Source: Octopus vulgaris
Lineage: Eukaryota
NCBI GenBank assembly: GCA_951406725.2
Contig: OX597834.1
Span: 15,066,001 to 15,130,000, forward strand
DNA length: 64,000 nt
Reading direction: 5' to 3'
Made by a program: the position numbers and the translations under genes. Shown in pieces: positions 9,347-64,000 of the stretch; positions within the stretch are counted from its first letter, which is position 1, and each line of letters opens with the position of its first letter. A model generated the notes under the pieces. The model worked only from the letters and a program-made list of their open reading frames with translations, searched no databases and had not been told where the DNA came from.

Positions 9347-9578
9347 TATTTCTTTATTACCCACAAGGGGCTAAACATAGAGGGGACAAACAAGGACAGA
9401 CATAGGTATTAAGTCGATTATATCGACCCCAGTGCGAAACTGGTACTTAATTTATCGACCCCGAAAGGATGAAAGGCAAAGTCGACCTCGGCGGAATTTG
9501 AACTCACAACGTAACGACAGACGAAATACCGCTAAGCATTTCGCCCGGCGTGCTAACGTTTCTGCCAGCTCTCTGCCT
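9347..9578 (-). mobile_element. tRNA-derived SINE, family B (Nin-like central domain), Tx1-type tail, with 17-bp TSD
   Basis: A-box-like GAGCTGGCAGAA, B-box GAGTTCAAATTCC and core GCCTTTCATCCTTTCGGGGTCGATAAATTAAGTACCAG. TSD CTTGACTCAGCTATACC at 9330-9346 and 9577-9593. Confidence 0.9.
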
Positions 9579-27439: not shown

Positions 27440-27848
27440 GAGCTGGCAAAAACGTTAGCACGCTGGGCGAAATGCTTAGCGGTATTTCGTCTGCCGCTAC
27501 GTTCTGAGTTCAAATTCCGCCGAGGTCGACTTTGCCTTTCATCTCTTCAGGGTCGATAAATTAAGTACCAGTTACGCACTGGGGTCAATGTAATCGACTT
27601 AATACCTATATGTGTCCTTGTTTGTCCCCTCTATGTTTAGCCCCTTGTGGGTAATAAAGAAATAGGTATTTCGTCTACCATTACGTTCTGAGTTCAAATT
27701 ACACCGAGGTCGACTTTGCCTTTCATCCCTTCGGAGTCGATAAATTAAGTACCAGCTACGCACTGGAGTCGATGTAATCAACTTAAACACTTTGCCTGTC
27801 CTTGTTTGTCTCCTTTATGTTTAGCCCCTTGTGGGCAATAAAGAAATA
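27440..27848 (+). mobile_element. Family B SINE head-to-tail dimer, Tx1-type tails, 14-bp TSD
   Basis: A full unit followed by a second unit starting at GGTATTTCGTCT. TSD AGAGAGAAATATGA at 27419-27432 and 27849-27862. Confidence 0.9.
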
Positions 27849-44258: not shown

Positions 44259-45378
44259 TTCTAGAAAGATGAAAGAAAATAGCAACCCGTATGTGATAGA
44301 GATTTAAATGGTAAGATGATGTAATATAATACTAGAATTTTAAGGCGGCGAGCTGGCAGATACGTTAGCACGCCAGGCGAAATGCGTAGCTGTATTTCGT
44401 CTGCCGTTACGTTCTGGGTTCAAATCCCACCGTGCTTTTGTGTGTGTGTATGTGAGTGTATATATATTCGTATATATATGTGCTTTTGTGTGGAGGTGTG
44501 TGTTCGTGTGTGCGTGTGTTTCCATGCGTGTATGAATATGTTTGTGCATGGAAGTTTTTGGGTCAGCGAACACATGGATTTCTTCTGCCATTTAAACGCA
44601 TAACCTATGCACAAATTTGATAATAATGATTCTGCCAGAAAACTACAAGAGTACAAGTCCGGGTAGAATATACCCCAATTTACATAATTTCGTTTGTCTT
44701 TAGGGCCTCTCGTCGTTGCTTCGCGTTCTGAATTCAAATTCCGTCGCCGTCGACCATGTTCCTCATTCTTTCTAGGTCGATATCTTAAGAACCATTTAAG
44801 CTGGTGTTGATGTGATCGATTAGACCCCTCTCACGAATTTGCTGGTCTTTTGCCAAAATTTGAAACAAAGTTGTATGTCTGATGCCTTTAAATATTCATT
44901 CCATTTATATCCAAACAATTACAAATTATTTCTTTGATGAGAATCGAACTTGATGCTTTATGTTACCCATTCTTGGTGCTATATATACTCCTCAGACATG
45001 CTTACAATAATAGGGTAACATACCTCAAGGTTAACATACCTCAAGGATAACATACCTCAGGTAAGTTAAAAATGAAATTCATTAGACATAAATTCATTTG
45101 ACATCAATAAAATTATATTTAAAGAAAGTGTTCCTTGTTATCTATGATTTTCTTCCTTCCGCATCAAGAGTAGGGGGGGGGGTGACGTCGGCGTAAATAA
45201 ATATATTCTGGGGTAATCGGTTAAAAAGTTCCCCCGACCCCTGCTATAGTGGACTCCATTATTTCAAGCAAAATTGTCATTCTTTCGTAAACATATATCT
45301 AAACGTTGAAATTAAAACCGAATTGAAGTGAAAATTCATTCTGTGAATGAATATAAAGGAATACAAAATATATATATA

Positions 45379-45608
45379 TTTCTTTATTACCCACAAGGAG
45401 CTAAACACAGAGGGGACAAACAAGTACAGACAACCAGGTTAAGTCGATTACATCGACCCCAGTGCGTAACTGGTACTGAATTTATCGACCCCGTAATGAG
45501 GAAAGGCAATTCGATCTCGGCGGAATTTGAACCCAGAACGTAACGGCAGACGAAATACGGCTACGCATTTCGCCCGGCGTGCTAACGTTTCTGCCAGCTC
45601 GCCGCCTT
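45379..45608 (-). mobile_element. Family B SINE, Tx1-type tail
   Basis: Full-length match to 9347-9578. Confidence 0.9.
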
Positions 45609-56271: not shown

Positions 56272-56882
56272 TTCAAATTTTGGCACAAGGCCAGCAATCT
56301 CGGAGGCGGGGTAAAGTCGATTACAGCGACCCAAGTGTTCAACTAGCTATTCATTTTATCGACTGCGAATGGATAAAAGGCAAAGTCGACCTCGGCAGGA
56401 TTCGAACTCAGGACGTAAAGACGGGCGAACTACCGCTAATCATTTTACAAGGCGTGATAACGATTCTTATTTCTTTACTGCCCACGAGGGGCTAAACATA
56501 TAGGGAACAATCAAGGACAGACAAAGGGATTAAGCTGATTACATCGATCCCAGTGGGTAACTAGTACTTAATTTATCGACCCTGAATGGATGAAAGGCAA
56601 AGTCGACCTGGGCGGAATTTGAACTCAGAACGTAGCGGCAGACGAAATACCTATTTCTTTACTACCCACAAGGGGCTAAACACAGAGGGGACAAACAAGG
56701 ATAGACAAACGGATTAAGTGGATTACATCGACCCCAGTGGGTAACTGGTATTTAATTTATCGACACCGAAAAGATGAAAGGCAAAGTCGACCTGGGCGGA
56801 ATTTGAACTCACAACGTAGCGACGGGCGAAATACAGCTAAGCATTTCGCCTGGCGTACTAACGTTTCTGCCAGCTCGCCTCC
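56272..56882 (-). mobile_element. Family B SINE trimer (two Tx1-tailed units plus one alternative-tail unit)
   Basis: Three consecutive GTCGACTTTGCCTTT cores. Junctions AAAGAAATA|GGTATTTCG and AAAGAAATA|AGAATCG. Confidence 0.9.
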
Positions 56883-58318
56883 CAACTAGGAAAGAATATT
56901 AAAACAATAATTTAGAGTCTTTTGCTGAATAAATCATATATAATAATGGCACCATAAGAATGATTCACCAAGGCCATCAAGAAAGACATCACCGAATGAA
57001 GAAATGCAAGAATCGAGAAAGGCCTTGGCATTAAGAAATACCAAAATTTCTTGATGAAACACCTTAGAAGCTTCCACAGGGTATTAGCAGCAGTAACAAT
57101 ACGATGGCTGGATGAAAAAGAAACGGTAGCGCAGAAGAGAATTAACACATGGAAATGATATTGGAGGAGAAAATATAATTATTGCCTTCACACAAATATA
57201 TCAGAGACAACCGGTAGTACAGAACGCTAATTTCCATGCAAGAAATATATAAAAACGTTGCAAGAATATGAATCAGAATCGATATAACCTCGAACCAAAT
57301 ATGGTACGTTACAAAAATTCGCTACGATTATTTGGGATGAATCTGTTATTATCGTAAAAACTGATGTATGTATATCCCGCAAATATTTTTATTTAGTACT
57401 CTAACGAAAATATCTGTAGGTGCAGGTGGCTGGGTGGTAAGAAGTATGTTTCCCATGGTCGGACGGAAAACTTGAAGTATTGGACATTTGGACTCAAAAA
57501 GAGTCTACAAAATGTAATAAAAAGTGAGAGGTTTATTGTCTCGTGTATGTGATTTTTTTCAATATTGAACTATGTACGAGGTTTATAGCGTCACTGTGTT
57601 TTAAAAAGAAAAGAAAAAAAAGAATTCTGAACTATGTAAGAGGTTTGTTGCCTCGTGTTTTTTATAAAAAAAAAAAAGAAAAAAGAACAATGTTTTAGAG
57701 AAGCAAAAGTCGGCGGGCGCTTTTCGTCTTCTCCCATCCTTATCATCCTTGCATCATTATCATTCGTCCCATTAATGTCTGTGTCCAGCCCGCAAGCTTC
57801 TATCTGTGTACTGCCCTTGTGGCAAATTAAATGAAATAAAGAAGTATGTTTCCCAACCACATATTTCAGGATTGAGTCCCGCTGCGTGTCACTTTTGGCA
57901 AGCGTCTTCTGCTAAAACCTCGGGCCGACCAAAACATTTTGAGTGTATTTGGTAGGCGAATCTGAAACAAGCCCATATTACATATGCTACAGTTCAAAAG
58001 TTTAAGATCACCTAAATTTATTTTAAATAAACATGTACAAAATGGAAATGACTGAAAGATTCTGGAGAAATATTTCATTAATGTATAGTGTCCAGTTTTA
58101 AAAAAGTATGGGAGTCGATTCATTCGATTAAAATTTCTTCAAGGCGGTGCCCCAGCATGGCCGCAGTCTTATAACTGAAACGAGTAAAGAAATAAAAGTC
58201 AAGAAGGTATAATTTCATTGAAATTTTTTTTATTTGCTCTGACCAAATTATTAAAAGGCAATGGAGAAGATGTCAATTCGCATGCATACAAAAATTCAAA
58301 TGAGCAAAAGATATACGG

Positions 58319-63044: not shown

Positions 63045-63101
<57 letters not shown>

Positions 63102-63201
63102 GACGACAGACAGACAGACAATAAACAGACAGATAGATAGATAGTTTGACTGATTGATAAGAGGGTAGATAGATTGATATATATATATATATATAGATAT
63201 G

Positions 63202-64000
63202 TTTCTTTATTAGCCACACAGGGCTGCACACAGATAGAACAAATTACAAGGTAGAGCTTTTCTTTTGAAGGTTTAAGAAAGAAAAAAAAAAAAAAAAAAA
63301 AAAAGGAAGGGGAGTTTCGATCAAAAGGGATCGTAAAAGGAGAGAAAGAGGACAAAAAAAAGGGGGGTTTAAAAAAAAGGGGGGGGGAAATTGATCAATA
63401 GGGATCGTTATCACAGAAATGTCAATATGAAGTGTAAAGGGGAGGACAGGTGAGGTTTACCCGTGCAAAGAAAAGCCTACGGAAAAGACCACGGTAACCT
63501 CGGTCAATGATGTCACATTTTATATTTCTTTTTTTTTTTTTTTTGCAAATAAGCAACTCTCTGTTTTCGATTTCTGGGTTCATAGGACTATGCTCAAGGT
63601 GGCTTCGTCATTCATACGTGCCATTCTTGCTACATTCACCCATCTTTTTTTAAAACATTCGCTAGACAAAACTTGCCTCTCTACTCTCACTTTCCTTTTC
63701 AAGTGGTACTTGAAGAAGTTGATGAGAGATTGACCAGAGAGGAAAGTGTTTGTCTCCAATCCTTTCAGACGCGTCCACCAGATACATTCTTTCACCATAG
63801 CCACAAGGATGATGAAAATAGCTCTTCCTTCCCGTTTGAAGGAAGGAGGCGTGACAATATTGACGATAGACTCAGCTGATAAACCGACTCGTCCCACACG
63901 TGACAGCAGTTGTTCGACATAAGCCCACAGGTCGGAAATTGTTGGACACTGAACGAGTGCGTGCAGAACGGTTTCGTCGCTCTGACCGCATCTCGGGCAG
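63202..64000 (-). mobile_element. Tx1/L1-clade non-LTR retrotransposon, 3' end (continues beyond window edge)
   Basis: ORF2 C-terminus with zf-RVT motif, then a ~380-nt 3' UTR with T tracts. It ends AGCCCTGTGTGGCTAATAAAGAAA against a (TA)n/(TATC)n tract. Confidence 0.85.
63580..63999 (-). CDS. LINE ORF2 C-terminal region with CCHC zinc finger (zf-RVT); partial, open to window edge
   Basis: Reads CPRCGQSDETVLHALVQCPTISDLWAYVEQLL...KECIWWTR...RW: C-x2-C-x8-H-x4-C followed by the W-rich region typical of Tx1/L1 ORF2. No internal stop in 139 codons. Confidence 0.85.
   Translation of the reverse strand, partial: CPRCGQSDETVLHALVQCPTISDLWAYVEQLLSRVGRVGLSAESIVNIVTPPSFKREGRAIFIILVAMVKECIWWTRLKGLETNTFLSGQSLINFFKYHLKRKVRVERQVLSSECFKKRWVNVARMARMNDEATLSIVL

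Follow-up and report, generated by a model that had tools for sequence, protein, structure and literature searches.

The window analysed here is a stretch of 64,000 nucleotides of an Octopus vulgaris contig (OX597834.1, positions 15,066,001 to 15,130,000). It holds the 3' end of a long interspersed element (LINE) of a family that we call F1, several copies of a short interspersed element, SINE B, and part of a non-coding relative, E3. The features on which the argument rests are the following.

63580 to 64000, minus strand: 3' end of F1 ORF2 (zf-RVT and C-terminus) in a 5'-truncated copy; by Pfam, the sister copy L034 has endonuclease, reverse transcriptase (RT) and zf-RVT domains
63200 to 63579, minus strand: F1 3' UTR, without poly(A), in full-length alignment with the other 29 fetched copies
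63200 to 63251, minus strand: conserved LINE tail, a predicted hairpin (apical stem AGCC/GGCT) and then an A-rich end; this segment is common to LINE and SINE
63045 to 63199, minus strand: (TATC)n-type microsatellite flank, the F1 target; other copies have the same kind of flank
57456 to 57841, plus strand: 3' part of E3, with the same apical hairpin and a 14-bp duplication, inside the head of another SINE family
9347 to 9578, minus strand: full SINE B monomer with an A-box- and B-box-like head, a core and the LINE-like tail; 17-bp target duplication
27440 to 27848, plus strand: SINE B dimer, the second unit starting from head position 49, with a 14-16 bp duplication around the whole dimer
45377 to 45608, minus strand: SINE B monomer, followed by (TA)n
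56314 to 56876, minus strand: SINE B dimer (56876-56468) that continues as a head-and-core unit with a different tail
Six SINE tails, in the order used below: 9390-9349, 27621-27662, 27805-27846, 45420-45379, 56511-56470 and 56695-56654

Within the window lie the final 800 nt of the F1 copy, which extends about 216 nt beyond the window edge and is 5'-truncated at a point that precedes the RT domain. Given the absence of this domain, the clade of the element was worked out on sister copies. Full F1 copies are about 6 kb long and encode a zinc-knuckle ORF1 and an ORF2 of 1145 amino acids with endonuclease, RT and zf-RVT domains. A protein search returned 27,470 candidates, the best 150 of the 27,470 being 99-100% identical; the best 30 F1 hits are mutually 99.7% alike, and copies and UTRs of older F1-group subfamilies are 82-90% alike. 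The closest named protein among the matches listed, at 65% identity, is from Argonauta hians. F1 has no poly(A), and its tail runs into (TATC)n, a repeat that also lies upstream of four of five full-length 5' ends and of all nine truncation points shown, once as a short run. Beyond the window end (L031, G000:C21:15130200-15130400), the window copy immediately follows the 3' terminus of an older F1-group copy, a (TATC)n run lying between the two, in an arrangement of stacked insertions.

The LINE tail is found at 63243-63202 on the minus strand, as quoted in an earlier, sequence-only reading of this DNA, which had allowed that other copies of the LINE might lack the tail and that a SINE fragment might merely abut the LINE here. 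This is ruled out: the tail lies directly 3' of the F1 3' UTR in 29 of 30 fetched loci, the window locus included, and the 30th locus retains just the final tail bases. The tail therefore belongs to the LINE.

Based on its domains and on the grouping of its RT, the lineage to which F1 belongs is a member of the L1 group of non-LTR retrotransposons. The ORF2 protein is more similar to human L1 ORF2p (E 1e-53) than to R2 (1e-19), and an RT tree with 52 rows assigns the lineage to a 45-row L1-group clade (99/94), apart from RTE, CR1 and R2/R4 outgroups, where the outgroup labels, like the CR1, RTE and R4 types referred to below, are our own reading of protein motifs. The same tree places it in a 33-row group (94/94, drawn open) together with fish, frog and lancelet elements, whose ORF1 is of the zinc-knuckle or ZCCHC3 type; four amphibian L1-like and algal rows fall apart from this group, as does the single row named 'transposon TX1 protein', from an alga. 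A CCHC zinc knuckle in ORF1 is a trait of the Tx1 clade. The zf-CCHC domain was recognised in three ORF1s, with E values of 0.004 (below the cut-off) and of 3e-4 and 3e-5 (above it). Insertion specificity of the Tx1 type is present as well, with repeats or a U2 gene as targets and with target duplications, and sequence-specific insertion of this kind is described for Tx1 in the accessible part of PMC4494074. We call the lineage Tx1-like and consider it likely to be Tx1, a membership judged without a named Tx1 reference in the tree.

At least nine related L1-group, Tx1-like families, all without poly(A), differ in their fixed targets. Nine ORF2 proteins, found by searches seeded with relatives and relics, share 55-93% identity and form one clade (100/100). 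F1, F1c and the older subfamilies are sited in (TATC)n, and F2 stands before (ATT)n in 30 of 30 loci. A tail was obtained from 19 of 21 F5 loci, and all 19 lie before (TC)n; the F4 group occupies other fixed sites with duplications of 16-20 bp, the range seen across the LINE families. A full-length element of the lineage (L232, 1062-6816; G000:C3), present in one copy only, has inserted exactly where a complete U2 snRNA gene (Rfam, 184.9 bits) begins, with a 17-bp duplication that covers the first U2 bases. The element Keno has a U2 target, too; the first U2 bases, which the octopus element duplicates, are not known to be Keno's site.

Several further observations concern the range of targets. 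L233, a close relative of L232, has a different flank. F4c inserts with 17-bp duplications into an unidentified repeat, at one fixed position (L215-L219, L224-L228); recurring targets of other kinds are seen for the L163-L180 and L229/L231 types. In L093, L094, L097 and L098, F2 copies are arrayed head to tail, repeating about every 5.87 kb with 4-12 ATT units at the joints, and two small contigs (G000:C47, C50) are largely F2 arrays. (ACT)n-type repeats, possibly a further target, come after a relic (L269) whose RT region shares about 78% identity with F2. In many of the 20 fetched copies of E3 (L134-L153), the sequence that follows is the head of another SINE family, entered at the same position; a longer copy, L150, contains a zinc-knuckle-like stretch, and no full ORF2 was linked to E3 among these 20 copies.

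SINE B is 232 nt long and non-coding. The box-like words of its head were recognised by eye; ARAGORN reported no tRNA in the window, and Rfam reported none in L184. With 36 tails in 414 kb of unselected sequence and a genome of 2.8 Gb, we estimate about 240,000 SINE tails per genome. Unselected copies are about 91% alike (n=38), and 5'-truncated copies occur. The last 45-60 bases are the part homologous to the LINE 3' end. The same head and core also occur with other tails, of which there are at least two (32 and 20 cases, with 8 unclear), as expected of tail swapping. Many SINE B units lie inside composites whose end is formed by another tail, and these may owe their movement to different machinery. 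The two other tails (L043, L046, L273, window 56314-56467 and others) have a hairpin with a five-base loop, in which the middle pair of the stem is flipped, and (ATT)n is often found at their end; no LINE was seen carrying either of them. In one locus (L133:1573-2677), eight SINE B units are arrayed at 184-nt spacing.

Aligned without gaps, the six SINE tails match the LINE tail at 33, 33, 30, 33, 29 and 33 of 42 positions, and their majority sequence, with one column tied, matches at 33 of 42. The ungapped alignment proposed in the sequence-only reading is real, but its hand count of 34 of 42 is above anything that the six window tails or their majority reach (29-33); a copy elsewhere, L045, does reach 34. 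In 500 dinucleotide shuffles, ungapped scores across the window peaked at 28, and at 30 (2 of 500) in shuffles with the last 12 bases fixed. One 3-base gap lengthens the match to 47-50 nt, and the shared 3' sequence is 79-86% identical over 42-43 nt.

LINE ends were ranked by the mean local score of SINE tails (60 of 123) against the last 90 nt of each LINE. The highest means belong to the L270 type (59) and the L042 type (57), older sister subfamilies that match the SINE tail better than does the window F1 (49); F1c and the L061 type score 52, a relic 45, F1d and F5 41, F2 36 and the F4 group 17-37. Shuffles score 15-20 in this ranking, and about 18 for the five F1-group tails with means of 49-59; the F1-group tails reach z values of 9-18, and the F4c tail lies at chance (z 0.8). 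One CR1-type and two RTE-type ends score 11-12, which is chance, and three R4-type ends appear unrelated to the SINE tail by eye. A better match in a LINE outside the Tx1 clade, a possibility raised in the sequence-only reading, was thus not seen among the CR1-, RTE- and R4-type ends examined.

A small stem-loop is present in both the LINE and the SINE tails, as had been noticed from the sequence, though it is weak alone by fold z: -0.53 for the LINE and -1.25, -0.99 and -0.18 for three SINE tails, with values below -2 in only 6 of 20 tails, the window LINE and SINE not among them. A Watson-Crick stem of 3-6 pairs, ending 0-3 nt before the A-rich end, occurs in the SINE and in each of the 17 LINE tails tested, and the fixed 3' ends lie 12-15 nt past the hairpin. 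Between LINE families the apical stem changes on both sides, reading GCC/GGC in F1 and F2, ACC/GGT in F5, GATT/AATC in the F4 group and GATC/GATC in the U2-targeting family. A stem test gave p values of 0.002-0.24 for single rows and of 0.002 for six lineages combined, which are to be read knowing that the anchor was picked after seeing the data and that the lineages are related. The last 45 nt are 64% alike among the six lineages, versus 49% for the preceding 45, and the two common variable sites in 123 SINE tails leave pairing possible. Covariation is confined to the apical stem: in most tails the minimum-energy fold includes a further, basal stem, but its six pairs, 95% paired, lack any double-sided change, and RNAalifold found no consensus structure in an alignment built on sequence only. 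The apical hairpin is therefore supported by comparison, and its function is something that we infer only.

Insertion sites were studied in 110 SINE arrays, of which 50 were unselected and 60 came from searches favouring certain flanks. Target duplications were found in 30 of the 110, and the 27 that lie outside SINE heads measure 10-18 bp, a length that fits the LINE lineage. A (TATC)n-type repeat occurs within 20 nt of a single array. More than half of the 27 duplications (15, and 3 of 9 among the unselected; background 1.0%) start with the trinucleotide of head position 49, the one that follows the tail in head-to-tail dimers. SINE copies also often sit in their own head, at position 49, and a duplicated head segment was present in 4 of 5 inspected nests, chosen for a head with a SINE start after it. 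Which head-derived trinucleotide comes next can be predicted from the base that precedes the A-rich end (14:5 versus 2:56, Fisher p 1.4e-9), and in dimers and a trimer the duplications start with the array's own following bases.

Which element copies the SINE? Families that target (TATC)n provide the best-matching tails, but the SINE arrays avoid (TATC)n. The SINE's similarity of about 91% lies near that of the older F1 subfamilies and away from the 99.7% of F1. F1 and the SINE differ in both target and age, and these differences make the window F1 an unlikely mobiliser. It was the first of the two candidates named in the earlier reading, this very LINE or a close relative. Nor did a close relative with the required properties emerge. 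Pattern searches with the tail and the head sites brought up variant or truncated SINEs or already known F1 subfamilies and no LINE with the SINE's exact tail or target (21 loci, 3 loci and 9 of 33 places were inspected, the remainder being judged from the matched letters). Protein searches, taking the best 150 candidates each, also gave none with the SINE's tail or target; those seeded with relics yielded F1c and F5 and then, by identities and places, known families only. What survives of the proposed stringent SINE-Tx1 partnership is a link at the level of the lineage, which draws on the tail match, the tail's being part of the LINE, the position of the hairpin and the duplication length.

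Our main reading, to which we give a probability of roughly 0.7 on sequence evidence, is that the SINE 3' end is homologous to that of a site-specific, poly(A)-less L1-group lineage, probably Tx1, and that an ORF2 protein encoded by some member of that lineage, predicted to recognise the tail hairpin, likely copies the SINE; the window F1 would be a relative of the tail's donor and probably not the mobiliser. We propose the following model. A tRNA-type SINE head and core would have acquired its tail from an older F1 sister by template switch or recombination. The ORF2 protein of the lineage would bind the tail hairpin, not poly(A), and would prime reverse transcription at the nick, giving rise to precise 3' ends and L1-type duplications. 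The mobiliser may be another family of the lineage or an extinct one, and the landing site could be set either by another family that has the SINE's target or by steering through read-through RNA.

The last of these options can be taken further, albeit tentatively, in a version that we rather doubt. A Tx1-type ORF2 protein would grip the 3' hairpin, and the few bases of read-through RNA beyond it would pair with the nicked DNA and so help to choose the site. After taking over such a tail, a SINE would inherit its targets from whatever follows its source copies, in this case its own head, which could explain the self-nesting, the high copy number and the avoidance of the donor's microsatellites. 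If true, the Tx1 clade would thereby gain its first SINE partner with a shared tail, and RNA-steered targeting a natural example. A neighbouring explanation, which we judge unlikely, has F1 or the older (TATC)n subfamilies themselves moving the SINE, with read-through RNA past the hairpin setting the site and an enzyme less specific than its own insertions suggest. The F1-group subfamilies are indeed the best tail matches and of similar age, and this explanation is favoured by the trinucleotide shared between duplications and dimers, by the dependence of that trinucleotide on the preceding tail base and by the dimer and trimer duplications that begin with their own following bases. The same pattern, however, would be produced by two partner families with different endonuclease preferences. 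In addition, the preponderance of arrays from flank-favouring searches weighs against it, unduplicated flank bases may be copied RNA, and the confinement of nearly all F1 copies to (TATC)n suggests specificity of the enzyme.

Two other accounts dispense with the tail as a signal. The tail may have been captured once from the lineage, the SINE now being moved by another LINE clade or within composites, so that the tail is a relic. About half of the head-continuing arrays listed end in one of the two other tails, intact frames are found in abundant LINEs of the CR1, RTE and R4 types, and single tails fold weakly. Monomers, dimers and 5'-truncated copies nevertheless end exactly at the tail, with duplications of 10-18 bp, and the CR1-, RTE- and R4-type elements end in simple repeats of their own, which are absent from these SINE copies; we regard a relic tail as quite improbable. 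We attach almost no weight to chance or convergence, by which a T/G-rich stretch before an A-rich end would look alike in unrelated repeats. The shared stretch is short and includes a hexamer resembling a poly(A) signal, but the match exceeds the shuffle maximum of 28-30, the z values of the F1-group tails are high, and the similarity lies at the very 3' end of both elements.

What is the relevance of such a partnership, favoured in our main reading? L1-group elements of animals are the textbook 'relaxed' type, which takes any poly(A) RNA. In a proposal by Ohshima, stringent recognition is ancestral in the L1 clade, reportedly on plant and algal cases only. An animal lineage without poly(A), with a conserved hairpin and with a SINE carrying it, would extend Ohshima's case to animals. 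The lineage also offers a test set, comprising several young families with intact ORF2 frames and with differing targets and stems, in which the rules for hairpin and target could be separated by swaps.

SINE/LINE tail pairs reported in molluscs involve CR1, CR1-Zenon, L2 and Nimb, and no L1 or Tx1 partner is named in the accessible parts of these papers (PMC4824008, PMC11481361, PMC4758252); in the main text of two of them, as available, Tx1 is absent (PMC4824008, PMC11481361). As in the octopus system, one head and core is found there with a variety of LINE-derived tails. In a recent repeat annotation of octopus, 13 L1-Tx1 families are listed as recently active, with no pairings given in the portion available (PMC13282606). 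No SINE with a shared Tx1 tail turned up in the papers searched.

Among Tx1 elements, the nearest parallel is the crocodilian SINEU, inferred to be moved by Tx1-Mar, a member of this clade (PMC4494074). Both systems include Tx1 or Tx1-like families with microsatellite, U2 or transposon targets. Unlike the octopus SINE, which has its tail but not its target in common with its putative partner lineage, SINEU has snRNA heads, poly(A) and a target in common with its partner; no LINE sharing the SINEU-1 3' end was found, according to the accessible text (PMC4494074). The same source, as far as available, counts Kibi, in (TC)n, Koshi, in (TTC)n, and Keno as Tx1 families (PMC4494074). Like the octopus families, these are microsatellite- and U2-targeting elements of the L1 group, and F5 is also found in (TC)n, a likeness of target.

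Stringent pairs within the L1 clade are rare but known from plants and a green alga, according to the parts available of two papers: ZmSINE2 and ZmSINE3 of maize and sorghum share their tail with LINE1-1_ZM, and SINEX-3_CR of Chlamydomonas with L1-1_CR (PMC3472496, PMC3747384). As far as these accounts go, the octopus system agrees with them in an L1-clade lineage whose last 45 nt are conserved, in a predicted hairpin with candidate compensatory changes and in a SINE that is putatively of the tRNA type. While the plant and algal L1s mostly end in poly(A), the octopus lineage is an animal one, Tx1-like, site-specific and without poly(A).
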